Of a stretch of 64,000 nt of DNA, positions 16,019 to 60,160 are shown in pieces. The first letter of the stretch is position 1. Each line of letters begins with the position of its first letter. Source of the DNA: Thermodesulfobacteriota bacterium (GTDB lineage Bacteria > Desulfobacterota_D > UBA1144 > Nemesobacterales > Nemesobacteraceae). The DNA lies in NCBI GenBank assembly GCA_965116725.1, contig OZ220700.1:881315-945314 (forward strand), in the 5' to 3' direction. The position numbers were made by a program, and so were the translations under genes. Under the pieces are notes generated by a model. The model ran no database searches and had not been told where the DNA came from. It saw only the letters and a program-made list of their open reading frames with translations.

Positions 16019-16020
16019 GT

Positions 16021-16485: not shown

Positions 16486-16505
16486 GGATAAAAGGAAAAT
16501 CTAAT

Positions 16506-41575: not shown

Positions 41576-41727
41576 CGGGGTTTTCCTTGAAAAGACGAAC
41601 TAAACTCTATATGAGCCGGTATCAACTTTCAAGCCGTCGTAGGGGGGTCGCGCAGTCCCCGGCTTGACACGGATAAGGGGCTCAAATAGCTTACAGGTGA
41701 AATATCCGGGGGCACGGAGAAACTCAG

Positions 41728-42681
41728 ATGATAACGGCACTTGGCGGCGGAAGCGGAGCCGCGAAATTCCTTAAGGGACTCACGGGGATAATTTCCCCGT
41801 CGGAACTCACCGTAATAGTGAACACCGCAGATGACATGGACCTTTACGGAATGAGGGTCTCTCCGGACATAGACACCATAATCTACAGGCTCTCGGGAAG
41901 CATAGACGAAAAAAAAGGGTGGGGGCTCCGCGGCGACACGTTCGAGTTTCTGGGCGCCGCCGCGAGATTCGGTTTTCCGACGTGGTTCGGTCTCGGGGAC
42001 AGGGATCTCGCCACTCACCTGTTCAGAAAAGCCGTCATCGACGCGGGGGGGACCCTCAGCGAATCCACCTCGAAGATAGCGCAGCGCTTCGGCCTCGGGG
42101 AAATGCGCATACTGCCAATGAGCGACGACAGGGTCGAGACATGGATAGAGACGGACGCGGGCGAAATGCACTTCCAGGAATACTACATAAAGCACGCGAT
42201 GCGCCCCGAGGTTCGCGGAGTCAAGATAAAGGGCGCGCGCGAGGCCTCCGCAGCCCCGCTGGTTCTTGACTCGATAGACGGCGCCGATCTGGTGATCATA
42301 TGCCCGAGCAACCCCATAATCAGCATAGGCCCCATACTCGAGATAAAGGAAGTGAGAGAAAGGCTAGTCGGCGCGCCGGGCCTTAAGGTCGCCGTGAGCC
42401 CCCTTATGCGCGGAAAACCCCTTAAAGGTCCTGCGGACAAGCTCATGAGGGGACTTGGAATGGAGGCTTCTTCGACCCAGGTGGCCAGACTTTACGCCGA
42501 TTTTCTGGACGTGCTCGTAATCGACCGCTCGGATGCGGGAGAGGAGGCCGCCATAGAAGCCCTGGGAGTAAGTGTTTTCGTCACGGACACTCTGATCCCC
42601 GACGAACAAAGCTCGATACGCCTTTCGCGGGACGTACTTGATTTTACAGAATCTCTGGGACAGAGACGCGCCTCTCCCTAG
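41728..42681 (+). CDS. cofD: 2-phospho-L-lactate transferase (CofD family)
   Basis: MITALGGGSGAAKFLKGL...IVNTADDMDLYGMRVSPDIDTIIYRLSG...GWGLRGDTF match the CofD signature regions. Confidence 0.72.
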   Translation: MITALGGGSGAAKFLKGLTGIISPSELTVIVNTADDMDLYGMRVSPDIDTIIYRLSGSIDEKKGWGLRGDTFEFLGAAARFGFPTWFGLGDRDLATHLFRKAVIDAGGTLSESTSKIAQRFGLGEMRILPMSDDRVETWIETDAGEMHFQEYYIKHAMRPEVRGVKIKGAREASAAPLVLDSIDGADLVIICPSNPIISIGPILEIKEVRERLVGAPGLKVAVSPLMRGKPLKGPADKLMRGLGMEASSTQVARLYADFLDVLVIDRSDAGEEAAIEALGVSVFVTDTLIPDEQSSIRLSRDVLDFTESLGQRRASP

Positions 42682-42690
42682 GCAGGGCGA

Positions 42691-43626
42691 TCAGGAGTCT
42701 TCTTCTTCCTTTTTTCTCGGCTCGTAGGGTACGATGCTGTAGAAAAAGAACTGGGGTATGCCCTTTACTTCCGATGAATCGCAACTCGTCCGGATCTTTA
42801 CGATATGGTTCATGACCACCGTTCCTATGGCGTAAACCGTGGTTTCCCCCTCCACTCCGAACTCAACCGCAGTATAATCCTCGTTGTCTTTCTCGAATTC
42901 CCACCTTATGTCGAAAATGCCGAGTTTTTCTATCTCCCTTCTCAGAAAATAGTCGGAAACCTGCGAAGTCTGGGAATAACACGACCTTCCCCTGAAGCAG
43001 TCAAGAAATATCTCGCCGCGAAGGTGAGAGGAAACCACATCATCGAGATTTCCGCCGTTCACCCTCCCGTAATATATCCCCTCGGGAAGCATGATCATGT
43101 TGGCGGCGAAGCGGTGGCCCCCCACATGGCTGGTTCTCCATGCGGAAATCCCCTCTTTTTTTAGAAGTTCCCTGTAAACTTCAGCCCCTGCGACCGCACA
43201 GCATCCGTCGTGGGCTCCGTGAGTGCAAACCAGAACGAGTGTTTCTTCGCAGGAAAATTTCTCTATCTCCCCGGTGCGGACAAGCTCGGGGAGATCTATC
43301 GAGAGGAGGTCTTCGTATGTTTCTATTTCGAATCTGTAGAGTTTCGGGGAGACTTCAGAAGAATGGGCGTAGTAAAAAGCGAGATTCCCCTTGCTTGGTC
43401 CCGGCCCTCCTATGAGCTGAATCCTGGATTCCTCAAAAGACGAAAGAAAACTTCCAAGATGCTCCTTTACCTCCTCCGGCAATGCGCTTTCCGGAAAAGC
43501 ATCCCTTTTCCATACCCTGGAGTACTCAAGCAAAAACCAGTTCTTCACCTCAAGAGCGGTTCCGTAGAGATGTTCTCCGCTTTGGGAAGACCCCTGGGAA
43601 CATGTAAGTGTTTTTTCGTCGGTCAT
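42691..43626 (-). CDS. sucrase/ferredoxin-like (thioredoxin-like [2Fe-2S]) family protein
   Basis: LVCTHGAHDGCCAVAGAEVYRELL...SHVGGHRFAANMIMLPEGIYYGRV. Confidence 0.62.
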   Translation of the reverse strand: MTDEKTLTCSQGSSQSGEHLYGTALEVKNWFLLEYSRVWKRDAFPESALPEEVKEHLGSFLSSFEESRIQLIGGPGPSKGNLAFYYAHSSEVSPKLYRFEIETYEDLLSIDLPELVRTGEIEKFSCEETLVLVCTHGAHDGCCAVAGAEVYRELLKKEGISAWRTSHVGGHRFAANMIMLPEGIYYGRVNGGNLDDVVSSHLRGEIFLDCFRGRSCYSQTSQVSDYFLRREIEKLGIFDIRWEFEKDNEDYTAVEFGVEGETTVYAIGTVVMNHIVKIRTSCDSSEVKGIPQFFFYSIVPYEPRKKEEEDS

Positions 43627-43627
43627 C

Positions 43628-44920
43628 TCATCCTCCTTGGCTCTGCCCGCCGTTTTTTTCCCTAAGCACCGTCAGGAATTCCCCCTTCGGCACCAGATAG
43701 AAGAACTTTCCCCAGTTTCTCATCACGCCCGCGTGCCGGGAGGCGTCTTTTCCCTCCCCCCAGAAAAGGTCGACGCGCCGGGCCCCTTTTATAGCTCCCC
43801 CGCTGTCATGGTTAACGACAAAGCGGGAAACCGGCTCCCACTGCGACGGCTCGACCGAAGAGGGGGTTTCGAAGACCGGTCTATCAAACTCCATGAACGC
43901 CAGGGCTCCCTTGGGGAAAAAAGCTTTGTCGGTCGCTATGGTCCTGCCGTCAACGACTTCCGTTCCGAAAGAGGTCTCGGGTTTGCCCGGAAGTCCGCGG
44001 AAGAAAATGTAACTCGGGTTTTTGTAAAGGATATTCATCCTCTCTGCGTAGGAGAGGGATCTCAGGTGGCTTTCTATGGCCCAAAGACTCATTTTTTCCT
44101 TCGGAATCCACTCGAAGAGAAATTTCCCTATCGCCACGTAATCGTGTCCGTTCTGGGCGGCGTAGCCCACGACCCGCTCCTCTCCGTCCGCGAATCTTAT
44201 CTTACCCGAGCCCTGAATCTGAAGAAAAAACGCGTCAACAGGGTCTACCCACGCGATCTCGAGCCTTTTCCCCCTGAGCCTTCCCCCGGAGTCTATTTCG
44301 CTTCGTGAATAATAGGGAACCAGTTCCAACGTCCTGCCGGGGCCTCCGGAGGCGACCCTGCCGTAAAGGGACTGAAGCTTTCCTTGGGCGATTTTGTCCT
44401 CCTCAAGAAATGAAAATCTCTCGAACCGCTCGACGAACCTGTCTATCCTCAAGCGCACCAGGTCGTCGGGAACCCCGTATAGCGGCTGGGTGTGCTGAGG
44501 TGTCCTGGTTCGGGAAGCGGAGAGCACCGGAGAGAAGTAAGAGGTTATAAAAACCTTGCCCCAGGGTTTTCCCGGAAAACCGTAGAAATCGAAATTTTCC
44601 CTTACGTCCTTTATGAAATCATCCTTGGTAACGCCCGCTTCAAGCTTGGCGAGAAGATAACCGAGTGCAAGGGCGTAGTCTTCTGCGGAGACGGTTTTTT
44701 GTCCGAAAACGAGCTGGGAGTCCTTTTTCTGCGAAAGTTTCTCGACGCTTGCGCCGATGGATTCCTTCAGTCCCTCGGGGAAAAGGTCGTCGTCCATCTC
44801 GGGGAACGCGGGAACCGCCCGCATGGACTCGGGGCCCGGAATATCCGGGGGTCTTTCACAGGAAAGGTAGAGAAAGAGCAGGAAAACGGCTGACAGGACA
44901 GCTGCGGTTCTTTGGTTCAT
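43628..44920 (-). CDS. mltA: membrane-bound lytic murein transglycosylase A
   Basis: Signal peptide with lipobox (YLSC). The MltA-specific domain is followed by a C-terminal 3D domain (DSGGAIKGARRVDLFWG). Confidence 0.75.
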   Translation of the reverse strand: MNQRTAAVLSAVFLLFLYLSCERPPDIPGPESMRAVPAFPEMDDDLFPEGLKESIGASVEKLSQKKDSQLVFGQKTVSAEDYALALGYLLAKLEAGVTKDDFIKDVRENFDFYGFPGKPWGKVFITSYFSPVLSASRTRTPQHTQPLYGVPDDLVRLRIDRFVERFERFSFLEEDKIAQGKLQSLYGRVASGGPGRTLELVPYYSRSEIDSGGRLRGKRLEIAWVDPVDAFFLQIQGSGKIRFADGEERVVGYAAQNGHDYVAIGKFLFEWIPKEKMSLWAIESHLRSLSYAERMNILYKNPSYIFFRGLPGKPETSFGTEVVDGRTIATDKAFFPKGALAFMEFDRPVFETPSSVEPSQWEPVSRFVVNHDSGGAIKGARRVDLFWGEGKDASRHAGVMRNWGKFFYLVPKGEFLTVLREKNGGQSQGG

Positions 44921-45135
44921 CTAAACCTGTTGGTTCCCTAAAGGAAAAATATACGACGCGAAATGCCCGCTAATCAGGATAAATTTATACCTTGTTACAT
45001 GCGGCTTGCGCAAAAATTCTGCGTCTCCGGTCTCCGCCGGGACGGATATTTTTCTGAAAAGACAGGGTAAAATAAAAATTTCAGGGCAGTTTGGCCGCAG
45101 TGGCCCGCAGTTTTTTGCAGTCAAGAAACGGAAAA

Positions 45136-46080
45136 ATGAAGCGGAAATTCCTTGGCATAGATATAGGGGGAACCAACATCAGGGGAAAAATCATCTCCGA
45201 GGAGGGAAGCACGCTTGGCGAGAGAAAAACCCTCTCGGACGCCCACATGGGCATCTCCCGGCTCATGGAGAACCTGGCCGGCTTAATAGAAGGATTTGCC
45301 GGGGAAGGGGTATCCGCGATCGGGATAGGAGTACCGGGGACCGTTGACCGCGCAAGCGGCACTCTCGTCCAGGCCCCGAACATAGCAAACACCAGGGATT
45401 TCCCGTTTACAGAAGTCCTTTCGGAGAAAATCGGAACCGCAACCCCCGTTTTTATACAAAACGACGCTTCCTGCGCGGCCCTCGGAGAATACCGGGCGGG
45501 GGCGGGCAGAGGATCAGACTCGATGGTAATGATAACCCTGGGAACAGGGTTCGGGGGCGGTATAATCCTCGACGGCAAGCTCTGGCCGGGGGAAGACGGC
45601 TTCGCCGGAGAGGTGGGGCACATGACGATTAACCCGTCGGGACCCATTTGTGGCTGCGGCGCTAGGGGCTGCATTGAAACCTACGTTTCGCAGGTAGCGA
45701 TAAAGAGAATCGTCCGCGAGCACCCGGAACTCCGTGAAAGGCTCGCCGGTACCGAAGAATCGGCCCTCCCCGAGCGCCTGGCGGAGCTTGCGCGCGAAAA
45801 AAACCAAGCGGCCATCTCGGTATGGAACGACTTCGGGGCAAACCTAGGGGTGGGAATATCAATTCTCGTAAACATCCTCGACGTAAAGACGGTGGTAGTG
45901 GGCGGGGGGCTTTCGGGGGCCTGGGAACTTTTTATCGGGAAAGCCCTTGAGGAAGCCGAAAGAAGGTGTCTTGGGGGAGCGCAAAGGGGAGTTCAGATAA
46001 AAAGAGCGGCCTTGGGAGACGATGCGGGGGTGCTGGGAGCGTGTTACGTGGCAGAAACCGGGCTCGGGGAGAGATCCTAG
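45136..46080 (+). CDS. ROK-family sugar kinase (glucokinase-like)
   Basis: LGIDIGGTNIRG, ENDASCAALGE and the zinc motif GHMTINPSGPICGCGARGCIE. Confidence 0.82.
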   Translation: MKRKFLGIDIGGTNIRGKIISEEGSTLGERKTLSDAHMGISRLMENLAGLIEGFAGEGVSAIGIGVPGTVDRASGTLVQAPNIANTRDFPFTEVLSEKIGTATPVFIQNDASCAALGEYRAGAGRGSDSMVMITLGTGFGGGIILDGKLWPGEDGFAGEVGHMTINPSGPICGCGARGCIETYVSQVAIKRIVREHPELRERLAGTEESALPERLAELAREKNQAAISVWNDFGANLGVGISILVNILDVKTVVVGGGLSGAWELFIGKALEEAERRCLGGAQRGVQIKRAALGDDAGVLGACYVAETGLGERS

Positions 46081-47489
46081 GAGGCCTGGGGGCTTTTCGC
46101 AAGGTCAAGCAGCTTCTGCGAAGAACCGCGAACCCTTATCCTGAGCCACGGACCCTTCTCCTCATCCGCTTTGAACCTGTTATCCATTCTTAAACCGCCC
46201 ACCCAGATTATTCCATCGCGGGTTTCGAAAACCGGCACTTTTTTTCTAAGAAATCTAGGTATTTTCTCGTCAATGAAAAAATCCTTGAGCTTCTTGGCCC
46301 CCTTCATTCCGAGCGGAACGAACCTGTCTCCCTCGGAAAAGCTCCTGAGCGTTAAAGGAAAACCGACTTTCTCGGGCGTGAAGTACCCGACGTCGGCCGC
46401 GCCCCAGAGGGATGCGTCATCCGTAAGCTCAACAGTGACCTCAAGATCCCGGGAGATCCTGTGGGTACCGTGGGTTTTTATCTCGGTTTGCGGGAACTCG
46501 CGGAATTTCTCCTCGCGCACAAAAAAGAAAACCCCGTGCCCCGCGTGAAAAACGACTCCGCCGGGAAGGTTTATCTCCGAAGAGGGCTCTCCGGAGCGCA
46601 GTACCTCGTCAATCGAGAAAAGATGCCTGGCGGAAACCGAGTTCAGGTCCCCCTTTACGGCCAGAATCGATTTTCTCATTACCGAGAACCTGATCGCCGG
46701 AGGCTCGCGAAGAAGTTTTTCCGTGTCTCCGAGCACGCCTCCTGCCACAACGCGGGCAACTTTCCGGAATCTTTTCTCGCCTTCGGCCGAAATGAAGTCC
46801 GCCTCCGCGGCGCAGACCGCCGCCACTCGGGAGAGAACCTGCTCGACGGCCGGATTATAGCTCTCAAGCAGTGGGATAAGTTCGTTTCTTACCCTGTTTC
46901 TTAGAAATTCGTCAGAGCTGTTGGTCGAATCCTCCCTCCAGGGCTCTCCTTTTGATCGGAGGTACTCCATGGCTTCATGCTTTGTGACGTTTATGAGCGG
47001 ACGTATTATGTTGCCGGTCAAGGGCCTTATCCCGGCAAGCCCCTGGGAACCGCTTCCCCTTATGAGCCTCATTATCACCGTCTCCGCCTGATCGTTAAGC
47101 GTGTGCGCCGTGGCGATCCTCTGGGCAGAATGCTTCGTCAGAACATCGTTGAAAAAGCCGTAGCGAAGCTCCCTGGCGGCGTCCTCGATTGAAAGTTTAC
47201 GTTTTTTTCTGAATCCCTCTGTGTCTACCCGCACGCATTCAAACGGAAAGCCAAGCCGTTGGGCCGTGTCCCTGACGAACTCGGCGTCTTCATCCGACTC
47301 TACGCCCCTTAACCCGTGATTGACATGGGAAACGATCACACTTGTGCCCGGATAAAATTCCCGCAGGTCCCAAAGGGCAAAGAGAAGCGCCATGGAATCT
47401 GGTCCCCCGGACACTCCCGCAACGATCACATCCCCGGGAGCGATCATCCCGAAGGAATCAACCGTTTTTCTTATCTTGGCCAGAAACAT
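46077..47489 (-). CDS. tilS: tRNA(Ile)-lysidine synthase
   Basis: The PP-loop VAGVSGGPDSMAL, followed by the TilS substrate-binding and C-terminal domains. Confidence 0.87.
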   Translation of the reverse strand: MFLAKIRKTVDSFGMIAPGDVIVAGVSGGPDSMALLFALWDLREFYPGTSVIVSHVNHGLRGVESDEDAEFVRDTAQRLGFPFECVRVDTEGFRKKRKLSIEDAARELRYGFFNDVLTKHSAQRIATAHTLNDQAETVIMRLIRGSGSQGLAGIRPLTGNIIRPLINVTKHEAMEYLRSKGEPWREDSTNSSDEFLRNRVRNELIPLLESYNPAVEQVLSRVAAVCAAEADFISAEGEKRFRKVARVVAGGVLGDTEKLLREPPAIRFSVMRKSILAVKGDLNSVSARHLFSIDEVLRSGEPSSEINLPGGVVFHAGHGVFFFVREEKFREFPQTEIKTHGTHRISRDLEVTVELTDDASLWGAADVGYFTPEKVGFPLTLRSFSEGDRFVPLGMKGAKKLKDFFIDEKIPRFLRKKVPVFETRDGIIWVGGLRMDNRFKADEEKGPWLRIRVRGSSQKLLDLAKSPQAS

Positions 47490-48159
47490 CGGAGTCGCTT
47501 TGAGAGATCCCGGCGGAAACTATGAGCCGAAACGCGTCCTCTACGGAAATATCCAGTTCCTGCAGGTCCTCTTCCGGAACCATAATGTAAATGCCGCTTG
47601 TCGGATTCGGCGTCGTGGGGACAAACAGGCTGACAAGTTTATGGTCCGTCACGTTATGGCTCTTCCTCGGCTCAGTAGCTCCCGTTACGAAAGCTATGGC
47701 GTGAATCCCTTTTCTCGGGTACTCGACCAGCACGACCCTACTCATGCTCTGCATCTGGGAGGTGAAAAAAAGCGTCTGCACGACCTGCTTCACGCTCACG
47801 TAGAAAGTTCTCGCAAGCGGAATCTTCGATATAAGAGACTCGCCGAACTGAAGCATCCTCCTGCCGACGAAGTTCCTAGTAATGGCTCCCAGAAAAATAA
47901 TCAGCAGCAGCGTGGCCACGATTCCTATGACGAAAGAGAGCCCCTGAAACACGTAAGGCGGGACATCTATGAAGTGGCGGAGTATACCGGCTGGGCCAGT
48001 GCTGAAAAAGAAAAGCATCCACTTTATCAGCTTGTAGAGGACAAAAATGGTCACCCCGAAAGGGACGATAATCAGGATGCCGGCAATGAAGCTCTGCTTG
48101 AAAAAAGAAGATTGGGGCGTTTTTGAGTCCGGTATTTTAATCCCCCCGTTTCTGGTCAA
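47458..48159 (-). CDS. DUF502-family membrane protein
   Basis: 233 aa, two N-terminal TMs, then ...IPLARTFYVSVKQV...VLVEYPRKG...FVPTTPNPTSG, typical of DUF502. Confidence 0.62.
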   Translation of the reverse strand: MTRNGGIKIPDSKTPQSSFFKQSFIAGILIIVPFGVTIFVLYKLIKWMLFFFSTGPAGILRHFIDVPPYVFQGLSFVIGIVATLLLIIFLGAITRNFVGRRMLQFGESLISKIPLARTFYVSVKQVVQTLFFTSQMQSMSRVVLVEYPRKGIHAIAFVTGATEPRKSHNVTDHKLVSLFVPTTPNPTSGIYIMVPEEDLQELDISVEDAFRLIVSAGISQSDSDVSGQDKKNG

Positions 48160-52523: not shown

Positions 52524-52551
52524 TTGTTAACTTAAGTATATAGTTCCCAAA
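52524..52551 (-). repeat. island repeat family, copy g (inverted, about 5 mismatches)
   Basis: The reverse complement reads tttgggaactatatacttaagttaacaa. Confidence 0.55.
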
Positions 52552-52553
52552 TG

Positions 52554-52580
52554 TTTGGGAATTACATACTTGGGTTGACA
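52554..52580 (+). repeat. island repeat family, copy b (27 nt, identical to copy d in inverse orientation)
   Basis: tttgggaattacatacttgggttgaca. Confidence 0.9.
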
Positions 52581-52777
52581 AGCATGATTTTGAATAAAGA
52601 TTCGGATCGAGAATCTGGGGAGAGCATATTATGGCAAGCTGTTCCTTTCTCCTGTGTTTGCTCAAAACGCTTGGCTACGTCGGCTAAACATCCTAAAAGC
52701 AAATACACTTGGCCTTCTTCGGAGAGCTTAGAAGAGGTAGAGAACAACAGGTCTCTTACTACGAATTCATGGTCCAT
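52562..52777 (-). CDS. hypothetical 71-aa protein
   Basis: A strong RBS (aaaggaggcccttcaATG on the minus strand) and an operator-bearing promoter upstream. The C-terminus runs into repeat b. Confidence 0.45.
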   Translation of the reverse strand: MDHEFVVRDLLFSTSSKLSEEGQVYLLLGCLADVAKRFEQTQEKGTACHNMLSPDSRSESLFKIMLVNPSM

Positions 52778-52846
52778 TGAAGGGCCTCCTTTAATGGGCT
52801 TTCTCAGGGGGTGGGGCTACACCCCCTGGGATTAATTTTTACTTGT

Positions 52847-52886
52847 AATTACGGACAGTTATACTCGATTATGGACAGACAGTCAA
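52847..52886 (-). promoter_or_regulatory. promoter with two operator-like motifs (drives 52562..52777)
   Basis: The minus strand reads TTGACT-gtctgtccataatcgag-TATAAC-tgtccgtaatt. The -35 is at 52881-52886 and the -10 at 52858-52863. Confidence 0.5.
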
Positions 52887-52898
52887 GAACAACAAACA

Positions 52899-52924
52899 TT
52901 TGGGAATTAATACTTGGGTTGACA
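52899..52924 (+). repeat. island repeat family, copy c (one 1-nt deletion)
   Basis: tttgggaattaatacttgggttgaca. Confidence 0.8.
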
Positions 52925-52982
52925 AACCGCTTGTCTTTCTGTCCACTTCCGCAGACACCTAGGTATACTAGTTCCTTAAATT

Positions 52983-53240
52983 ATGGACAAAATAAAGAAT
53001 TTATTGGAGGGGCTTGAAGTGTTTTGGCACCTCGTAACAATGCCGGTCCTATTGGTTGGGATAGGTGCGCGTATACTCAAACCCGATCTTGAGTGGTGGG
53101 GACTTCCTGCTGATATGCTTCTTTCTTGCTTTTGTTTCTTCTGCTTGTTGTGCGGACTTACACCTTATTTAAAAATGGATATCACGCTCAAGAGGAAAGT
53201 TTTGAGGCAAGGCCTATTGAAAGCAGATAAAGAGCTATAG
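52983..53240 (+). CDS. hypothetical small membrane protein (a GTG start at 53019 with GGAGGGG upstream is possible)
   Basis: 85-aa ORF with two hydrophobic segments (VTMPVLLVGIGARIL; LLSCFCFFCLLCGL). Confidence 0.3.
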   Translation: MDKIKNLLEGLEVFWHLVTMPVLLVGIGARILKPDLEWWGLPADMLLSCFCFFCLLCGLTPYLKMDITLKRKVLRQGLLKADKEL

Positions 53241-53438
53241 TAAAACTTGCAGGCTACGCAATTCTAAGTGCCCACATCTGGCGCAAACAATACCTGCAAG
53301 GCGATGCGCCTTATCTTCGTCTTCTACTTTTAGAGAGAGCACCTCTGTAGTAAAGAATTCAGTGGCGTTACATCTCGGGCACGTCTTCCTGTTCTTTTGC
53401 ACCTGATCTAAAACTGCTTGGAGTTCTTCCTCAGTCAT
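53235..53438 (-). CDS. small zinc-ribbon protein
   Basis: 67 aa with CPRC...CARC pairs. The ATG lies 15 nt downstream of the preceding gene's stop. Confidence 0.45.
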   Translation of the reverse strand: MTEEELQAVLDQVQKNRKTCPRCNATEFFTTEVLSLKVEDEDKAHRLAGIVCARCGHLELRSLQVLL

Positions 53439-53452
53439 GGGCAGAAAACTCC

Positions 53453-54094
53453 CTAATCATGCCTTAGGTAACAAATCTCTTCCTCATAATCAACATCTAT
53501 AGGTACTCCTTGAAACAACACCACGCTGGTAGAGGCGTAGTAGGCATCTTGCCCCCTGCTGTCAATAAAGTGTTCGATATTCCGACACTGAACAATTCCG
53601 GGCATTAAATCGAGTCGCGCACATATAGCAACTCCACCCGAGTGAGGAAGCAGCCCAAACCTGCCTCCGTAATAAGGTGGCTCCGTACCAATCTCACATA
53701 TGCTCCAGAATTCGTACACATCTCTGGCGTATTCATAGTCGGTAATCACCCCTATAAATACGCCGTTGGTATAGTAGCGTTCCAAGCTGTCGGCACACTC
53801 TATATAAGGGTTGCCTGTTGCCTCTTGCAATACTCCTAGCACAGGATCAAGAGCTCGAAATGATGTTATTGAGCCAGGAGGAAGGGGCTCGACATGAGTA
53901 AAGAGAGGGTCGTTGCAGTTTATTTCTTGGGTGTCCTCCTGCTGGTTGAAGTCAGCATATAACTCAGGCTGGAATGATTGAGATGATGTAGAAGAATCAG
54001 CAGGGACCGAAACATTTATGTTTGTTGTGTCTCCGCCTCCGCAACCCGTTGCGAGGAAAACTGTCAATATAAGTGGGATTAATAATCTGGCCAT
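53453..54094 (-). CDS. lipoprotein, unknown function
   Basis: The inner start MARLLIPLILTVFLATGCGG (lipobox) has GGAGG upstream. The stop codon is TAG. Confidence 0.6.
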   Translation of the reverse strand: MARLLIPLILTVFLATGCGGGDTTNINVSVPADSSTSSQSFQPELYADFNQQEDTQEINCNDPLFTHVEPLPPGSITSFRALDPVLGVLQEATGNPYIECADSLERYYTNGVFIGVITDYEYARDVYEFWSICEIGTEPPYYGGRFGLLPHSGGVAICARLDLMPGIVQCRNIEHFIDSRGQDAYYASTSVVLFQGVPIDVDYEEEICYLRHD

Positions 54095-54122
54095 ACCTAA
54101 CCTCCGATTTAGTATGGGCAGT

Positions 54123-54151
54123 ATTCTAATGGATTGTGGACAGAACATCAA
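54123..54151 (-). promoter_or_regulatory. promoter with an operator motif in the spacer (drives 53453..54094)
   Basis: The minus strand reads TTGATG-ttctgtccacaatccat-TAGAAT. Confidence 0.5.
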
Positions 54152-54260
54152 GGAGGAAGGTGGGCGTGATCTCTGTGCCGTCATTATTGGACCACATCAC
54201 GAAAGATAAGCTTATGTTCCTATATGCAGACTCGCGCCCACCTGAAACAAAGGATATCAG

Positions 54261-54273
54261 ATTGTGGACAGAA
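54261..54273 (+). promoter_or_regulatory. second identical operator copy (gATTGTGGACAGAAc)
   Basis: The 15-mer gattgtggacagaac occurs at 54132-54146 and again at 54260-54274. Confidence 0.5.
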
Positions 54274-54295
54274 CCGCAACAAAAAACCCCGCTCT

Positions 54296-54323
54296 TTGAG
54301 TTAACAAAGCAACGGGGTATAAT
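54296..54323 (+). promoter_or_regulatory. candidate promoter of tRNA-like gene 1
   Basis: TTGAGT-N16-TATAAT. The -10 ends 10 nt before the first base of the 9-bp acceptor helix. Confidence 0.45.
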
Positions 54324-54333
54324 TTGATTTCAC

Positions 54334-54426
54334 GGAGAGTGTCCGCTAGCAAGTGCTAAAAGCCAGCTTAGACCTGGCTGGGGTGCTTTGACCAAGCACC
54401 GGGGGCAGTACCCACACTCTCCGCCA
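54334..54426 (+). tRNA. non-canonical tRNA-like gene: 9-bp acceptor / 3-bp T stem, long variable arm, anticodon UAG, discriminator G, encoded CCA
   Basis: Folded by hand. GGAGAGTGT (54334-42) pairs with ACACTCTCC (54414-22). D-like hairpin TAGC-AAGT-GCTA. Anticodon arm AGCCAG-CTTAGAC-CTGGCT. Variable arm GGTGCTT-TGACC-AAGCACC. GGG-GGCAGTA-CCC. Then G and CCA. Confidence 0.55.
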
Positions 54427-54499
54427 AACCGGACGTCAAGAGAAGTGTATGCTATACAGATAATTCAGTCAAGAACTTTCTGTCCGTAATCGCGATTAG

Positions 54500-54694
54500 T
54501 CAACTTGTAAGCGGCCGCAGGTATACCCAGTAGACCTTTTCTCCGCAATGGGGGCATACCGGGAGTTTCTCGCCACGTATAAACTTCCTTTCGGTTAGAC
54601 ACCTGCACGATGTCCTGTAAATGCCCCCCGGAAAAGCCCTGCGCCCGGTATAATTGCCCAGACCGAGCTTTCGGGATCTTCTCTTCTTGTTCAT
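54500..54694 (-). CDS. small basic zinc-ribbon protein (weak RBS)
   Basis: 64 aa. SCRC...CPHC. Lys/Arg-rich N-terminus. Confidence 0.35.
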   Translation of the reverse strand: MNKKRRSRKLGLGNYTGRRAFPGGIYRTSCRCLTERKFIRGEKLPVCPHCGEKVYWVYLRPLTS

Positions 54695-54868
54695 TTCTCT
54701 ATTTTAAGGCGGGCGCAAACCTCCTTATCTTGTATTCGGAAGGAGCCAAGACGATGACCAGGTATTGACCCGGCCGGACGTGCGCCCGCACATAAAAAGG
54801 AAAGCGGCATCTTGTCCACCATGAGGAAAGTGGTTTATGTCGCAGACTACCGCTTCCCATTATTCTAA

Positions 54869-56158
54869 TTATGGTGAAGTCACAAAATACCCCACCAGTC
54901 CGTTCTCCCCGTCTGAAGATCCGAAGGTGCCGTTAGCGCTGGTCGGATAGGAGGCATCTTCGAAGAACCTTAATCCATAGAACGCTACTTTTCCTCCGCC
55001 TTTCCACTCCCCGTCAACTATGCTTCCGGCCCCTCCGGCGTGCGTCGCTCCCAGGGGATCCGCGAACTCTGAGATAGGGGATTGGAACTGCACTTCCGTG
55101 GGCAAGCTGACATCTGCCTTGAAGTTATACGCCCGCACGCTGACAGTTCCCTCGGCGAAGTTGATGGTAGTGGTTACGTCAGCGGTGAAGGTTCCCGTCT
55201 TCGGGTCGGAAGACCTGTCAGTGAAGTAATGCCCGCTTGCTGTTCCCGTGTAGGTAACGGTTCCTTTGGGGTGTACCTCGGGTAACCCGTAGGGATATCC
55301 ACCCGCGGCATAGACACCAAAGTCGTAATCCATTGAAGCGGGGTCCTCGGGGATATAGAACCAACTGCCAGCGACAAGATAGTCGATTGCCGGCTGGTAC
55401 TCGTGTGGGGCTACAGTGGTGGCGGACGGCAGTGTCACTTCGGGGAGGCTTGAATCGTCCGGAGTGAACACCACCGCGCCAATTCCTGGGTGATACCCTT
55501 TTGCTTCAGTGTTGCGGTTGAATTCAAGATAGCAGAACGTGGCACACCTGAAGCTTCCCCGTACGCCATCCAGTGCTCCCGCCAGGGAAACATTGATAAA
55601 GAATATCTGCCAGTCGCGCCCCGGGGGGAGCTCAGGGAACTCGTCTATTTCAATTAGTCGGCTGAAAGGAGCATAGTTTACCCACGGCTGCCGTACCGGA
55701 TGGGCAGGAGTCACATTGCTGGTGACGCTGACCCTCCATTTACCGGCTCCGGGAAAAAGCCTCTCCGCTTCAAATGCCCTCCACCCTTCTCCAAACGCGT
55801 GCTCCGTTTCCTGGAAGGTGGTATCCGGAGTTTCCGAACGGATCATAAGACGCCCCCTCCATTGGGTAGGAGCGAAATAATTGGACTCCTGGTCGAACAT
55901 CGAGAGATTGAAGCCAAGCCCTTCTTCATCAAACCATGGCAGTACGATTGAATAACGAGGGCCAGAGACCGTTTGCGATACGTTCTTGTAAGGAGTGATG
56001 TCGGGACCGATAGTGGAGAAGGATGGCTCATGGTCGATTGCCATGTACATCAGGTCGGCCATGCTTATGGTTTTTGAATCATCCTTTGAATCATCCGACG
56101 AACTGCCGCATCCAAGCAGCGCAAGCGCAAGAAACAGGGGAAGCAAGGTTTTAGTCAT
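54869..56158 (-). CDS. surface-lipoprotein-like protein with a TbpB/fHbp-type C-terminal beta-barrel
   Basis: Lipobox LALALLGCGSSS. The C-terminal pattern YTGTASGHYF...GTFTADVTTTINFAEGTVS...GEWKGGGKVAFYG...ANGTFG...GLVGYF is the usual 8-strand barrel of TbpB-like lipoproteins. Confidence 0.55.
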   Translation of the reverse strand: MTKTLLPLFLALALLGCGSSSDDSKDDSKTISMADLMYMAIDHEPSFSTIGPDITPYKNVSQTVSGPRYSIVLPWFDEEGLGFNLSMFDQESNYFAPTQWRGRLMIRSETPDTTFQETEHAFGEGWRAFEAERLFPGAGKWRVSVTSNVTPAHPVRQPWVNYAPFSRLIEIDEFPELPPGRDWQIFFINVSLAGALDGVRGSFRCATFCYLEFNRNTEAKGYHPGIGAVVFTPDDSSLPEVTLPSATTVAPHEYQPAIDYLVAGSWFYIPEDPASMDYDFGVYAAGGYPYGLPEVHPKGTVTYTGTASGHYFTDRSSDPKTGTFTADVTTTINFAEGTVSVRAYNFKADVSLPTEVQFQSPISEFADPLGATHAGGAGSIVDGEWKGGGKVAFYGLRFFEDASYPTSANGTFGSSDGENGLVGYFVTSP

Positions 56159-56186
56159 TATTCTCTCCTTAATCGTGGTAGAAGCG

Positions 56187-56230
56187 ATAATATCACGATT
56201 GTGGACAGAATGTCAAAAGAATGTTATTAT
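56187..56230. promoter_or_regulatory. overlapping divergent promoters sharing one operator motif
   Basis: Leftward: TTGACA (rc of 56211-16), an 18-nt spacer containing ttctgtccacaatc, then TATTAT (rc of 56187-92). Rightward: TGGACA (56202-07)-N17-TATTAT (56225-30). Confidence 0.5.
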
Positions 56231-56237
56231 CACAATC

Positions 56238-56329
56238 GTTGTTTGTCTAACGACCCTGTGCCGGGTCTCCGTGGAATACAAGACCCAACGGGAAATAAAC
56301 GGCACGTCCATTATCGTTAGACAAACAAC
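56238..56329 (+). ncRNA. structured leader/sRNA candidate: 16-bp perfect closing helix with nested helices
   Basis: GTTGTTTGTCTAACGA (56238-53) pairs with TCGTTAGACAAACAAC (56314-29). Inner helices are GTGCCG/CGGCAC and GGTCT/AGACC. Loop CCGT can pair with ACGG (56288-91). Confidence 0.4.
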
Positions 56330-56377
56330 AAGGCCCGGCGCCCTTGGGCGTTCGGACACCATATAAGGAGAAAGACT

Positions 56378-56623
56378 ATGGCTGAAGAGGAAGGAATAGA
56401 ATTTCTAAAAGGAGAGCTAGCTTTAGCGGCTGCGGCCATTAACGTTCTGCTCGACCTTGTTTGCATCTTATCAGAAGGCAAAAGAGTGACTAAAGGAGAC
56501 TTGCGCGAAGACCTAATGATTAGGCTAGGTACCGCTCGACCAGAGGGAATGAAGTCCGAAGAGTATATGAGAGGAATCGGGGCGTTTAAGGCGTTGATAC
56601 TCGACGGACTTTTGGATGAGTAA
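56378..56623 (+). CDS. hypothetical 81-aa protein
   Basis: AAGGAG lies 7 nt upstream of the ATG. The protein looks helical and acidic. No family recognised. Confidence 0.5.
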   Translation: MAEEEGIEFLKGELALAAAAINVLLDLVCILSEGKRVTKGDLREDLMIRLGTARPEGMKSEEYMRGIGAFKALILDGLLDE

Positions 56624-56756
56624 CCTCTGTTCCTTTTTGTTTTTAGCTTTCTTACGCTTTTCAGCTAAAGAATCTGTGACTTCTAGGTTGTCTTTCATGC
56701 TTAATAAGCATACCCTATTGTTTTGCTTTGGTAAAAATAAAAACTTTTAATAAATC

Positions 56757-56808
56757 TTGACATGACGTTTAAATTGTGATGATAATATGAGTGTCCGATT
56801 GCGGACAG
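56757..56808 (+). promoter_or_regulatory. promoter plus downstream operator of the collagen-repeat lipoprotein gene
   Basis: TTGACA (56757-62)-N18-GATAAT, then the dyad TGTCCG-attg-CGGACA (56792-56807). Confidence 0.5.
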
Positions 56809-56859
56809 GTTTTTAAGGTATGGAAAACAAAAAATCTCTTTATAAGGAGGATTTACATT

Positions 56860-57942
56860 ATGAGATTACGTAATCTTTTTATGATCCTGCTGTTGTGCAT
56901 GACGGTGGGAATGTTTGGCGTTTCGTGCGTCGATGACGGCGAGGATGGAGCGCAAGGGCCTCCGGGACCTCCGGGGCCTGCTGGACCTGCGGGTGAAGAT
57001 GGTGATGCTGGTGATGGTGGGATGGCTACTTACGATTTCTTGAAAGCGTGGGGAAGCGAGACAGGTACGATTGGCTGTGACGACCCGATACTGACGGGCG
57101 AGGGGGTTTTCCCTGGAGAAGGGTTAAAACCTATTCTTAATGCCAATGGTGTGCCGACACCAGCGTCGGGCATAGTGGCTAGGTGTAACGACGATGTATT
57201 CACCACACTTGCCGAAAACGCAGCTGCCACGCTTGGTGAAATGACGGGGTTAACACACGCCACTGGGGAGCTTGTCTTTATCAAGTCTGAACAATTAGTA
57301 GGCACCGACGCGATAAAAAGTGAGGTGGAGAACGATAAAACGCCAACCAAAAACGCGACTCGGGTAAATAAAACAACACGGCTTGTTGGGGGTTCCTTCT
57401 TTGCGGAGATGAGTACTACCGGTGGCAATGACGAGTCTGGAGAAAGGGCAATACTTTACAGTAATTGTAGTACGGGAACGGCACCTTCTGACCTCAGAGG
57501 ACATTGGCGTGCTGTAGAGATTACCGAAGTTTCGCAAGAATACTCCGCACCCGGAACTGCTGTTGCTGACGCAGTTACCACAACAACTACCACTAAAGTT
57601 TGTCTAAGGCTTGACTCAGTGCCAGGAACAGTCAAGTGCTTTATCGAGATTGAGGTGGATGCTCCGGCTGATGCAGATGGCGCACAATCCGGAGACTTTA
57701 CAACCGAGCAGATAGCGCTTTATGACGGTACGGCGGCTGAAGGCATGATGATTACGCCTGTTGCTCCGAAGGCTGCTGCTGCAACTGGATTGCTTGCAGT
57801 GCCGGCAGGTACTGACGGTGGGACAGCAAATGCTTCAGCGGCAGCAGTCGCTCTTTTTGGAGCCGATCAAGATTTAGACGCCGATAATGTGAGCAAGCTA
57901 TGTGCTCTCTTTGAAGAGGCGGGCGCCGCAGGAGGCAGTTAA
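56860..57942 (+). CDS. lipoprotein with a short collagen-like (G-X-Y)8 repeat
   Basis: AGGAGG lies 7 nt upstream. MRLRNLFMILLLCMTVGMFGVSC carries a lipobox, followed by GAQGPPGPPGPAGPAGEDGDAGDGG. Confidence 0.65.
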   Translation: MRLRNLFMILLLCMTVGMFGVSCVDDGEDGAQGPPGPPGPAGPAGEDGDAGDGGMATYDFLKAWGSETGTIGCDDPILTGEGVFPGEGLKPILNANGVPTPASGIVARCNDDVFTTLAENAAATLGEMTGLTHATGELVFIKSEQLVGTDAIKSEVENDKTPTKNATRVNKTTRLVGGSFFAEMSTTGGNDESGERAILYSNCSTGTAPSDLRGHWRAVEITEVSQEYSAPGTAVADAVTTTTTTKVCLRLDSVPGTVKCFIEIEVDAPADADGAQSGDFTTEQIALYDGTAAEGMMITPVAPKAAAATGLLAVPAGTDGGTANASAAAVALFGADQDLDADNVSKLCALFEEAGAAGGS

Positions 57943-58052
57943 TAAAGGACAAAACCCAAGGGAGAGTATAATGAAAGCCTCTGGTGAATTGTTTCCGAAC
58001 AAGACGTCCATCATCGTTAACTAGACACCTTCTAAAAGCTTTCCTTTGACAG

Positions 58053-58085
58053 CCCGGGCTTGAGAGATCGAGCCCGGGTTTTTTT
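58053..58085 (+). terminator. intrinsic terminator
   Basis: CCCGGGCT-tgagagatcg-AGCCCGGG followed by TTTTTTT. Confidence 0.75.
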
Positions 58086-58093
58086 GTATCAGA

Positions 58094-58122
58094 TTGACTT
58101 CTTGTCCACAATCAGTAATTAT
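58094..58122 (+). promoter_or_regulatory. operator-bearing promoter facing the 3' end of the transposase gene
   Basis: TTGACT-tcttgtccacaatcag(t)-(T)AATTAT. Downstream there is only a weak 51-codon ORF (58137-) or antisense RNA to the transposase 3' end. Confidence 0.35.
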
Positions 58123-58263
58123 GATTGACAAGAGAAATGTGCAGAAAACCAGAAGAACAAATTCCCGATATGTCCGAGGTAGATTTTGACACTCGGTTAC
58201 GTATTCTCCTAGGGGAACCTCCTGATCAAGAGGGGGCGGACGATAGTGCCGCCCCTTCCGATT

Positions 58264-59190
58264 CTACTGAATCAGATCCCGATAACTAAGCTTCTTCCCT
58301 ACCATCCCGTTCAGCGTAAGGTCTATCATGTCAATCGTATCCTCTCTCCGCATGTTATGGCGGGTCGCGTATTCATCCGCGTACCGCTGAAGGTGCTTAT
58401 GGGACATCTTGTGATAGGTTCCCTTGTATCCACGCTTTATTACCGCCCAGAAAGACTCAACGCCGTTTGTTGAGGATTCCCCCCTGACATACTCGCCTTT
58501 CTTGTGGTCCACGGCCATGTGCTCGAAGCCGAGCATCCCGACAATGGTATAAGCTCCGTGCTCATCCGAGTACACATGGGATCCTCTCTCCACGTTCTCA
58601 ATCAGGGTCCGGGCAATAGTGCCGCTATCAACCTTGTCGACGACAAAAGCCTTCACTCTCCTTGTATCCCGTTCCCGGATACCCACGATTGGCTTCTTGC
58701 CAACCTGACCGCGGCCTTCCCGAAGCTTCTTGTTGCTGTGCTTGTTTTTCTCAAGCCCGCCCACGTAAGTTTCGTCAATCTCGACCGCTCCCCTGAACTT
58801 GGGGCTCTTTACCTTCCACGCTGTCCGAATCCTGTGACACAGGTACCATGCGGTTTTCTGCGTAACGCCCAGGTCGCTTGCCAGCTTGTTGCTCGACGCT
58901 CCTTTAGGGGCAGTTCCCATAAGATAGATAGCGGCCAACCACTTGCGGTAAGACAAGTGCGACCCTTCCATCATGGTTCCAGTGCGGACGCTGAAGTAAC
59001 TGCGACAGCTGGAACACCAATAATTCATCTTAGGGTGATTGGACTCGCAGGTCTCTTCGGATTTGCAACGAGGGCAATTTCTTCCTCGCGGCCAACGGAC
59101 GGACTCTATATGGAGCATTGCCTTTTCTTCGGTATCGAATCGCTCCATGAACTTGTAAATAGAAAGCTTCTTTCTTTTTTCCCTAGCCAT
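58264..59190 (-). CDS. IS1595-family (ISXO2-like) DDE transposase; IS ends not resolved
   Basis: An N-terminal zinc ribbon (CPRCKSEE...CSSC), then EIDETYVGG, YSDEHGAY and TNGVESFW catalytic regions. The stop codon is TAG. Confidence 0.88.
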   Translation of the reverse strand: MAREKRKKLSIYKFMERFDTEEKAMLHIESVRWPRGRNCPRCKSEETCESNHPKMNYWCSSCRSYFSVRTGTMMEGSHLSYRKWLAAIYLMGTAPKGASSNKLASDLGVTQKTAWYLCHRIRTAWKVKSPKFRGAVEIDETYVGGLEKNKHSNKKLREGRGQVGKKPIVGIRERDTRRVKAFVVDKVDSGTIARTLIENVERGSHVYSDEHGAYTIVGMLGFEHMAVDHKKGEYVRGESSTNGVESFWAVIKRGYKGTYHKMSHKHLQRYADEYATRHNMRREDTIDMIDLTLNGMVGKKLSYRDLIQ

Positions 59191-59272
59191 AATTACAACC
59201 TCCCCTGATAATTGACTGCGAGAGGCATATATTGTATGTTGGATAAGGGGTAAGCGGATGATATGGTGTCTC

Positions 59273-59357
59273 GGAGGGCACCAGAATTGGCCTTAAAAAC
59301 TGTCTCTAAAACAGTGGCATGCCTGTCAGCATGGGGGTTCGATTCCCCTGCCCTCCG
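59273..59357 (+). tRNA. non-canonical tRNA-like gene: 8-bp acceptor / 4-bp T stem, long variable arm, anticodon CUA (amber), discriminator G, no encoded CCA, poor D arm
   Basis: Folded by hand. GGAGGGCA (59273-80) pairs with TGCCCTCC (59349-56). Anticodon arm ACTGT-CTCTAAA-ACAGT (59299-59315). Variable arm CATGC-CTGTCA-GCATG. T arm GGGG-TTCGATT-CCCC. The D region allows only CCA-GAAT-TGG. Confidence 0.5.
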
Positions 59358-59372
59358 CAGAACACAGAAAAC

Positions 59373-59394
59373 GACAGGAAGAATATTTCCTGTC
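59373..59394 (-). terminator. hairpin that would act as a terminator for leftward transcription
   Basis: GACAGGAA-gaatat-TTCCTGTC. The minus strand continues gttttctgtgttctg. Confidence 0.3.
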
Positions 59395-59470
59395 CTGAAC
59401 TGCTTTGTCAAATTTCCCTTAGCCAAATTAACAACCTCCCACACTATAAATATAATCATTTCAGGGAGTT

Positions 59471-59500
59471 TGTCAACCCATCTACTTAAATTATTTTGGA
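59471..59500 (-). repeat. island repeat family, copy f (degenerate; only gggttgacaa is well conserved)
   Basis: The reverse complement reads ccaaaataatttaagtagatgggttgaca. Confidence 0.35.
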
Positions 59501-59507
59501 TGCCGGG

Positions 59508-59537
59508 TTGTAATTCTGTCCAGTATCGGTGTAAACT
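59508..59537 (+). promoter_or_regulatory. operator-bearing promoter of the 164-aa ORF
   Basis: TTGTAA-ttctgtccagtatcggtg-TAAACT. Confidence 0.45.
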
Positions 59538-59612
59538 AAAGTTTACTTTCGATCAATGAGGCGGAGGGGCCTCTGTTTGAATGCTCATGGTTTGTACTTA
59601 TAGTAATAAAGT

Positions 59613-60107
59613 ATGGACTTTGTAAATCAGAATTGGCCAATAATTTCTCTCGTTATTCTTGTTGCCGGGGTTGCTTGGAGAGCTAGAGGATGGGTTTCGT
59701 CTGTTGATACAAAAATCGAAAATGTTGAAAAAGGTATAAAAGAGATTTCCGATTTTCTCGGAACAGTTTTTCGTTCCACTATTGTACCTAACAGCCCTAT
59801 TAGTTTAACTGATTTAGGTCTTGAAATTTCAAAAACACTTAATGCATCACAATGGGCTAAATCTGAAGCAATTAAGCTGGTTCGTGAAGAGAACTTAAGA
59901 TCTAAAAAACCATCACATTACATAATCGAAAGACACTGCTTTGATATTATAGAAGGAAGAGTAGAAGCAACACCAATGCAAGAAAGTGTTGAAAAATGTG
60001 CATACAAAAAAGGGCTGAAAAAACAACAAGTCCTAGATGTTTTAGCCGTTGAACTAAGGGACGCTCTCTTTGAACAACTCGGAATGGACAAAGACGCAAA
60101 CTACTGA
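59613..60107 (+). CDS. hypothetical protein with an N-terminal TM helix
   Basis: 164 aa and AT-rich. WPIISLVILVAGVAW forms a membrane anchor. No family recognised. Confidence 0.5.
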   Translation: MDFVNQNWPIISLVILVAGVAWRARGWVSSVDTKIENVEKGIKEISDFLGTVFRSTIVPNSPISLTDLGLEISKTLNASQWAKSEAIKLVREENLRSKKPSHYIIERHCFDIIEGRVEATPMQESVEKCAYKKGLKKQQVLDVLAVELRDALFEQLGMDKDANY

Positions 60108-60117
60108 AACCGACTAA

Positions 60118-60144
60118 TGTCAACCCAAGTATGTAATTCCCAAA
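60118..60144 (-). repeat. island repeat family, copy d (perfect inverted partner of copy b), abutting parS-1
   Basis: The plus strand tgtcaacccaagtatgtaattcccaaa is the reverse complement of 52554-52580. Confidence 0.9.
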
Positions 60145-60160
60145 TGTTTCACGTGAAACA
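60145..60160. other. parS: parS (ParB-binding centromere-like site), perfect consensus
   Basis: TGTTTCACGTGAAACA. Confidence 0.85.

Follow-up and report, generated by a model that had tools for sequence, protein, structure and literature searches.

An allo-tRNA-like gene with an amber anticodon, carried as a cassette in an IS1595-family transposon

What is an RNA gene with the anticodon of an amber suppressor doing beside a transposase, in a genome where TAG is an ordinary stop? The question is raised by a 64,000-nucleotide stretch (the window) of contig OZ220700.1 from assembly GCA_965116725.1, deposited as a Thermodesulfobacteriota bacterium; the host belongs to Candidatus Dadabacteria, the name that NCBI gives to the proteins clustering with its rpmH, IHF-alpha and PheT products at 90% identity or more. 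Between pheT and mnmE the window holds an IS1595-family transposon, and adjacent to its transposase lies a gene at 59273-59357 (plus strand) for a tRNA-like RNA with an acceptor/T branch split 8/4 and the anticodon CUA, here called the 8/4 RNA. We find that it sits in a cassette acquired by the transposon, placed between a promoter embedded in the transposon end and the start codon of the transposase, and that it travels with the element. We tentatively favour the reading that it is an allo-tRNA-type gene with an amber anticodon which is probably a weak or inactive decoder.

The acceptor of the 8/4 RNA pairs GGAGGGCA (59273-59280) with TGCCCTCC (59349-59356, a 3' strand also written UGCCCUCC) in 8 bp, all Watson-Crick. 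The discriminator is G59357 and the next letters are CAG, so that no CCA is encoded. The T arm GGGG-TTCGATT-CCCC (59334-59348) has four Watson-Crick pairs and the canonical loop UUCGAUU, and the variable arm CATGC-CTGTCA-GCATG (59318-59333) a 5-bp stem and a 6-nt loop. In the anticodon arm ACTGT-CTCTAAA-ACAGT (59299-59315) a 5-bp stem carries the loop C-U-CUA-A-A, with U33, the anticodon CUA at 59306-59308 and A37; the would-be sixth pair is A59298 opposite G59316. The 18-nt D region (59281-59298) forms only a 3-bp hairpin, CCA-GAAU-UGG, when the other four arms are forced. All of these elements, including the incomplete D region, lie where a preliminary description of this DNA had placed them by hand folding, and the alternative 7/5 reading does need the G-U pair mentioned there, at the terminus of the T stem, and also loses one variable-arm pair.

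The Rfam tRNA-Sec model matched the 8/4 RNA over the whole model length with 40.6 bits, short of its gathering score of 47 (local E 5.7e-7, and 1.2e-4 for the entire window against all 4227 Rfam families), and the folding z-score of its strand is -3.4, equalled by none of 200 dinucleotide shuffles (0/200). From these values we take the RNA to be real, far beyond chance, and they bear out its earlier designation as an 8/4 allo-tRNA-type gene with a CUA anticodon. At gathering thresholds Rfam called no family for it, including the tRNA model RF00005, and ARAGORN reported no tRNA gene anywhere in the window. The cloverleaf has a predicted energy of -34.0 kcal/mol and lies 1.2 kcal/mol above the fold of minimum energy (-35.2), where it is the 5' T stem and the T loop that pair with the D region. 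This D/T complementarity is modestly above that of composition-matched shuffles (p ~0.03).

The first allo-tRNAs came to light as sequences that fell just short of the tRNA-Sec covariance model (Mukai et al. 2017, NAR, PMC5389517). The sections of that paper drawn on here and below describe an acceptor/T branch of 12 bp divided 8/4 or 9/3, G73 or U73 together with a long variable arm, a D stem that is long and ends in a tetraloop, an anticodon stem extended to 6 bp and highly diverse anticodons, in Clostridia, Proteobacteria and Acidobacteria. According to the same sections, regular allo-tRNAs, 8/4 and 9/3 alike, decode efficiently in E. coli, inserting Ser (or Ala), and six irregular allo-tRNA(UAU) species failed to suppress in that host once their anticodon was changed to CUA, in the only published test given (PMC5389517). 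Natural ochre anticodons and engineered amber ones are mentioned for allo-tRNAs in the parts of PMC5389517 and PMC7590224 consulted. The 8/4 RNA has the 12-bp branch split 8/4, the long variable arm with G73 and the near-miss of tRNA-Sec, and lacks the long D stem with tetraloop and the 6-bp anticodon stem. With these two defining features absent, we therefore file it as a variant of the allo-tRNAs, to which it is evidently related, and not as a member.

Our reference set comprised nine experimentally active allo-tRNA amber suppressors on the 9/3 chassis, taken from the supplement of Mukai 2020 (PMC7590224). Shared between these references and the 8/4 RNA are the acceptor start GGAGGG, the GG of the D loop, the anticodon loop CUCUAAA, the T loop UUCGAUU and the 3' acceptor. 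The variable-arm design xAUGC-CUxxCx-GCAUx is that of S012 (AAUGC-CUCGCC-GCAUU) and S047, and the stretch from acceptor to anticodon stem has the same 18-nt length as in S012. In the register of the family (AGAAU/CUUAA) the D stem of the 8/4 RNA has two of five pairs, both A-U; among the references a D stem of 5-6 bp is present in 9/9, each of which folds as a full cloverleaf at minimum energy. A covariance model built from the nine was abandoned, as MAFFT misaligned their 5' ends, the D stems differing in length.

Comparison with allo-tRNAs such as the Silvibacterium bohemicum (8/4) allo-tRNA-GAG reveals the same 8/4 branch, long variable arm, G73 and non-serine anticodon, very similar T arm, variable arm and acceptor sequences, and a retained D-loop GG. 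The 8/4 RNA differs in having no 5-6-bp D stem, a 5-bp anticodon stem, a natural amber anticodon and a host in Candidatus Dadabacteria. Bacterial tRNA-Sec (selC) has an 8/5 branch, a 6-bp D stem and the anticodon UCA, whereas the 8/4 RNA has an 8/4 branch, no D stem and CUA. The E. coli suppressor supD, a tRNA-Ser with anticodon CUA, arose by point mutation from a canonical 7/5 chromosomal tRNA whose D arm is normal. With supD the 8/4 RNA shares a Ser-type, class II body with G73 and the loop CU-CUA-AA, and the mechanism would be the same if the 8/4 RNA were active, but the 8/4 RNA is non-canonical in its 8/4 branch and is borne by a transposon. Irregular allo-tRNA(UAU) species, among them the Edaphobacter C40 pseudogene with its overlapping transposon-related open reading frame (ORF), are described in the cited sections of PMC5389517 with a destabilised stem, a tie to transposable elements and doubtful activity in translation, all of which recall the 8/4 RNA. 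Unlike them, the 8/4 RNA is damaged in one arm only, with its other stems perfect, has the anticodon CUA, and lies in a setting where transposon ends, target duplication and cassette insertion point are all defined.

The cassette is about 210 bp long and comprises, in plus-strand order between direct repeats, a promoter-like site, the 8/4 RNA and a hairpin. The promoter candidate, sigma-70-like TTGACT-N17-TATGTT at 59212-59240 (plus strand), agrees with the consensus at 9/12 positions and predicts a leader of about 25 nt; a further candidate of the preliminary description, TTGGAT-N17-TATGGT, failed the scan. The hairpin, GACAGGAA-N6-TTCCTGTC (59373-59394), has an 8-bp stem, lies directly 3' of the RNA and resembles a terminator on the minus strand. 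Since the minus strand then continues with GTTTTCTGTG, the hairpin separates the ORF from the ancestral transposase promoter. The cassette is bounded proximally by direct repeat DR2, the functional ribosome-binding site (RBS) and ATG of the transposase, GGGAGGTTGTAATTATGGCTAGGGAAA (59178-59204, minus strand), and the distal edge is DR1, a degenerate copy of this RBS/start region, GGGAGGTTGTTAATTTGGCTAAGGGAAA (59413-59440, minus strand). The alignment score of the 27-bp DR1/DR2 repeat was reached by 0/2000 shuffles.

The ancestral transposase promoter found by scanning is TTGACA-N16-TATATT (59476-59449, minus strand), with its -35 box inside an inner inverted repeat (59471-59487, degenerate); locus L031 retains this promoter. 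In L031 and L032, whose elements are the closest siblings (transposase 88% and 82% identical), the same promoter lies about 35 nt upstream of the ATG and there is no 8/4 RNA. In the window, the promoter is parted from the transposase ATG (59190) by the cassette insert, and the 8/4 RNA is fully complementary to the 5' untranslated region made from the end-embedded promoter. On this comparison of sequences, the 8/4 RNA is either a gain in the lineage of the window or a loss in that of the siblings.

The whole transposon spans 7,585 bp (52557-60141), bounded by perfect 24-bp inverted repeats, GGGAATTACATACTTGGGTTGACA, at 52557-52580 and 60118-60141, and by an 8-bp target duplication, AAATGTTT, at 52549-52556 and 60142-60149. 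The same logic of repeats and duplication applies to the sibling insertions in L036 (duplication AAATGTTT) and L031 (duplication AAACATTC). The transposase (58264-59190, minus strand; 308 residues, TAG stop) matches Pfam PF12762 (DDE_Tnp_IS1595, E 3.8e-38) and the zinc ribbon PF12760, as the preliminary assignment to IS1595 had it, and has about 6900 homologs. IS1595-family elements with passenger genes are a known category, the 'transporter IS' (IS, insertion sequence; Siguier, Gagnevin and Chandler 2009, as cited in the part of PMC3129680 used here). The window transposon shares the DDE_Tnp_IS1595 domain with N-terminal zinc ribbon, the terminal inverted repeats, the 8-bp duplication and the passenger genes of this category, and differs from its known members in that the passengers include tRNA-like RNA genes; the literature searched yielded no report of RNA-gene passengers in the IS1595 family.

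A copy of window positions 52564-60134, 99.7% identical, stands in another context, at 9057-16639 of a 49-kb contig (L004), flanked by ERF, YqaJ and LPD38 genes. Such identity in a different setting indicates that the transposon moved recently, and the earlier proposal that the RNA is borne by a mobile element holds: it lies inside a bounded transposon present in two genomic contexts. The L004 copy is without the outer 7 bp of both inverted repeats and without a target duplication, which might point to movement by a non-standard route, to a sub-family whose tips differ or to sequences joined at the repeat during assembly. In another sample (L003, near position 9220) the same chromosomal insertion carries a 156-bp deletion (window 59971-60126), which takes the 3' end of a 164-residue ORF and most of the right inverted repeat and would immobilise that copy. 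The palindromic pheT-mnmE spacer GTGAAATGTTTCAC is a recurrent insertion site (the window, L036, L033 and L047): in separate Dadabacteria genomes, several distinct IS1595-type elements have inserted at this one 8-bp target, and the window transposon is abutted by a remnant end (52525-52541).

The other passengers comprise two ORFs with lipoprotein-type signals, of 243 residues (53453-54184, minus strand) and 429 residues (54869-56158, minus strand), an ORF of 360-383 residues with a short collagen-like repeat (56791-57942, plus strand), an orphan ORF of 164 residues between the tRNA cassette and the right inverted repeat (59613-60107, plus strand; no family match, alone in its 90% cluster) and small ORFs. 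These proteins resemble secreted lipoproteins and, in one case, a collagen-like product. Sequence searches with them against Pfam, NCBIfam, PADLOC and the PDB returned nothing informative and no translation, toxin-antitoxin or defence family, and an AlphaFold model of the 429-residue protein from a 4-sequence alignment was unusable (pLDDT 29.6).

A second tRNA-like gene, which the preliminary description had placed 4.9 kb away, is confirmed in the same transposon at 54334-54426 (plus strand), with the predicted promoter TTGAGT-N16-TATAAT at 54296-54323 (plus strand). In this 9/3 RNA the acceptor pairs perfectly over 9 bp, the D stem has 4 bp, and the T stem has 3 bp and the non-canonical loop GGCAGUA. 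The anticodon stem of 6 bp bears the loop CU-UAG-AC (anticodon UAG), the variable arm has 7 bp, and the gene encodes G73 and the CCA end; no Rfam match to it appeared at E<1. Homologs in L031 (13765-13857, minus strand), L032 and L036 (9793-9885, minus strand) have the anticodon GCG and a compensatory change of the closing stem pair from G-C to U-A, and a degenerate relative in L037 (2082-2180, plus strand) has the anticodon CUG and further compensatory pairs. In L031 the 9/3 gene is at the start of a 427-residue gene, and in the window it is beyond the end of the 429-residue counterpart; because its position relative to the same neighbour differs, it behaves as a movable unit.

A third type is a short 7/5 tRNA-like gene with U73 and its own TGTGTATAAT promoter, in L036 (6049-6120, plus strand) and L038 (4969-5039, minus strand), where C-G to U-A covariation in the T stem supports the 7/5 reading. 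The L038 gene has the loop UUGCAAC, with anticodon GCA, and matches Rfam tRNA-Sec at 39 bits, and the L036 gene lies between two direct copies of the inverted repeat of its element. Run on the window and 15 loci, ARAGORN missed the 8/4, 9/3 and short tRNA-like genes where present, including the third type in L036 and L038. Siblings without any tRNA-like RNA are found in L033-35 and L047-49. In L047, L048 and L049 a sibling IS1595 element (transposase 61% identical) occupies the same pheT-mnmE site without a tRNA-like gene, and its cargo (about 5930-8740 in L047) is a restriction-modification pair of an N6_N4 methyltransferase and an EcoRI-like endonuclease. L032 also holds a tRNA (5974-6070, minus strand; 53 bits with Rfam tRNA) that is canonical except for some 25 nt inserted into its anticodon loop; it lies in a segment of the element without counterpart in L031, and ARAGORN does not report it. 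Beside the element in the phage-like contig L038 there is a sub-threshold Rfam sRNA-Xcc1 match (8162-8258, plus strand; 46.5 bits, gathering score 53).

We also searched for relatives of the 8/4 RNA. Pattern scans of GTDB genomes and JGI metagenomes, with acceptor and T loop fixed, found no close homolog and returned only other allo-like RNAs with the same acceptor and ordinary tRNA-Ser genes; viral-contig scans for the 8/4 RNA and for the 9/3 T arm gave no match, and the 17-mer repeat core had five viral-contig hits, none with any further resemblance to the element and roughly as many as we estimate for chance. Six Solirubrobacterales loci (L007, L009, L010, L011, L018 and L028) hold a conserved class II tRNA-like gene that starts with GGAGGGCA, has a 4-bp T stem, UUU and G73, and is flanked by the inverted repeat GCAACTGC...GCAGTTGC. 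ARAGORN calls it tRNA-Lys in 3/4 genome loci tested, and it may be an actinobacterial allo-type tRNA. Further allo-like RNAs with the same acceptor occur in a Pyrinomonadaceae locus (L008, 7601-7686, minus strand) and in the Acidobacteria loci L005, L006 and L019, the last with two tandem copies. One RNA of this set has an ochre-type loop AUUUACA and a 5-bp D stem with a UGGC loop; the others have U73 and the anticodon GCC (GCG in the second L019 copy).

The preliminary description had argued from the TAG stops of rpmG and rpmH that the host does not reassign UAG globally. The rpmH stop stands, while rpmG was not located in the window by simple motif search. TAG ends about 10 of 55 long window ORFs (about 18%), among them rpmH and tilS, and 11/38 and 4/20 called genes in phage-like contigs carrying related elements, so that TAG reassignment in those carriers is rejected. 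The census of in-frame TAG codons proposed earlier found no element gene split by TAG, and when TAG was read as sense no credible gene merger appeared in the element. Programmed read-through of the TAG of the transposase was considered and rejected: the 81-codon in-frame extension is low-complexity junk that crosses a terminator hairpin, and it is unrelated to the long transposase ORF of L037. Phages with recoded stops, in which TAG or TGA is reassigned in late genes, encode suppressor tRNAs and have many in-frame stops in their own genes. The 8/4 RNA resembles those suppressors in its stop anticodon and its encoding on a mobile element, but neither the element nor its phage-like carrier contigs were found to contain in-frame stops; the element has no genes of its own interrupted by a suppressed stop, the mark of a recoding system. 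Thus TAG is an ordinary stop in this host, and no recoding toolkit was found in the element. The suggestion that the island carries a small one is not supported, on several counts: no element gene contains or needs an in-frame TAG, the read-through product of the transposase is junk, the cargo looks secreted and lipoprotein- or collagen-like, and the closest sibling lacks the 8/4 RNA and has a 9/3 RNA with a different anticodon.

How, then, would the 8/4 RNA behave? We propose that it would be transcribed from its predicted promoter and trimmed to about 85 nt, with acceptor/T helix, anticodon arm and variable arm intact and the D stem lost, leaving a poor or inactive substrate for the translation machinery. 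We favour a poor decoder, or none, since the 8/4 RNA has no D stem to organise the tRNA core and since irregular allo-tRNAs proved inactive on testing, and it would sit with these irregular, inactive, transposon-associated forms and not with efficient suppressors. If charged at all, it would probably be charged by seryl-tRNA synthetase (SerRS), with low-level Ser insertion at UAG. From the position of the cassette we also predict interference with transposase expression, which its hairpin and convergent promoter, between transposase promoter and ORF, would lower. Several points weigh against this reading. All stem pairs outside the D stem are Watson-Crick (22/22), and the RNA is flawless elsewhere too, including the T loop, U33 and A37. 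If about four disruptive changes had fallen at random among the stem nucleotides, we estimate the chance that all would lie in the D stem at about 0.002; damage so confined speaks against simple decay and points to a recent origin or to a selected design without D stem. Every SerRS and EF-Tu determinant that can be read from the letters is present. L017, an unrelated metagenomic 8/4 RNA with anticodon CAA, places a short hairpin straight on the acceptor and a 6-nt linker after it, and because this is comparable the D layout may recur and may be a functional variant. The promoter and the terminator are consensus matches only, and the RNA is identical in three contigs and two genomic contexts, so that conservation and covariation among the copies are uninformative.

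Several of these points would suit an active Ser-inserting amber suppressor, which is processed, to which CCA is added, which host SerRS charges through the variable arm, G73 and G1-G2-A3, and which reads UAG. The intact 12-bp acceptor/T branch, CU-CUA-AA loop, 5-bp variable arm and G73 speak for it, as do a 3' half close to that of active allo-tRNA suppressors, a predicted promoter of its own, damage limited to the D stem, which suggests selection on the rest, and the same odd D layout in L017; 8/4 and 9/3 allo-tRNAs are, moreover, reported as efficient in E. coli in the sections cited of PMC5389517. The preliminary description had thought such a suppressor probable. The Ser-type features on which it relied are present, but the claim is weakened by the absent D stem, against 5-6 bp in 9/9 tested active chassis, and by the inactivity of irregular allo-tRNAs in the same sections (PMC5389517), and its own alternative, a decaying or regulatory derivative, fits at least as well. 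A competing fold also destroys the T arm, TAG is a common stop in the host and in element-carrying contigs, the closest sibling element lacks the RNA and no element gene needs suppression. We regard an active suppressor as rather unlikely, and it is similarly doubtful that the transposon would, on that account, spread low-level stop-codon read-through.

The RNA might instead serve the element without decoding, by regulating the transposase as an antisense RNA or a roadblock, by mimicking tRNA or acting as a decoy, or as partner in an addiction-type module. The cassette is antisense and exactly between the conserved transposase promoter and the ATG, with its hairpin facing the promoter, and the D/T complementarity is somewhat above chance (p ~0.03). 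Sibling tRNA-like genes, beside the transposase or in duplicated inverted repeats, differ in kind and have unrelated anticodons, so that the role may not be tied to a particular codon. Tightly folded tRNAs are, however, poor antisense partners, the tRNA-like genes of L031 and L036 lie outside the transposase leader, the position of the 9/3 RNA varies, no toxin-antitoxin or defence family was detected among the neighbours, and perfect anticodon and T loops would be needless. We judge a non-decoding role unlikely. Highly improbable is the idea, named in the preliminary description as a possible refutation, that the RNA is the remnant of an ordinary chromosomal tRNA-Ser, tRNA-Leu or selC disrupted by insertion of the IS. 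The acceptor of tRNA-Ser commonly starts with GGAGGGC, our search pattern picked up many ordinary tRNA-Ser genes, a 7/5 reading with one G-U pair is possible, and the best Rfam match is tRNA-Sec. Yet both acceptor strands are present and perfectly paired, the branch is 8/4 and not 8/5, the anticodon CUA and not UCA, and no Sec genes are nearby; the gene lies 780 bp inside the transposon end and inward of the degenerate inner repeat, is inserted where the sibling element is uninterrupted, and has moved to a second context with the bounded element. Quite unlikely, finally, is a broader scheme in which IS1595-family transposons of Candidatus Dadabacteria are shuttles for interchangeable tRNA-like cassettes, with anticodons CUA, UAG, GCG, CUG and GCA, forming a mobile codon-reinterpreting system that inserts Ser at UAG, Leu or Arg codons. 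Such a system might be an addiction or host-manipulation device, or might tune its own transposase, and the D-stem-less 8/4 RNA would then, at similarly long odds, be a working variant and not a wreck.

Two further features of the window lie outside the transposon or its main subjects. A minus-strand region at 33230-47519 holds large ORFs of 957, 1205, 538, 326, 430 and 480 residues, of which the 1205-residue ORF encodes an SbcC-like ATPase, and a weak SAM-III riboswitch-like match at 7505-7583 (plus strand; 23 bits, E 0.8) is probably due to chance.

Allo-tRNAs, including a loose association with transposons, are already known. Within the literature searched, in the parts of the sources drawn on, we found no description of a natural amber anticodon on an 8/4 body without D stem, of Candidatus Dadabacteria as a host phylum, or of such RNAs as exact cassettes in an IS1595 transposon with defined ends, with differences in presence and anticodon among siblings. 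The natural role of allo-tRNAs has been open since their description in 2017, and they have served mostly as engineering chassis. This locus gives them a concrete, tractable natural setting, with defined transposon ends, signs of recent movement, two such RNAs on one element, and sibling copies in which the 8/4 RNA is missing or the 9/3 RNA has a different anticodon and compensatory changes in its stem. Should the amber RNA decode, nature would have supplied a mobile Ser amber suppressor whose D region is minimal, of interest to genetic-code engineers. Otherwise it would show cleanly how insertion sequences recruit tRNA-like RNAs or carry them along as hitch-hikers, and the locus offers a way to test whether transposition is regulated by cassettes of this kind.

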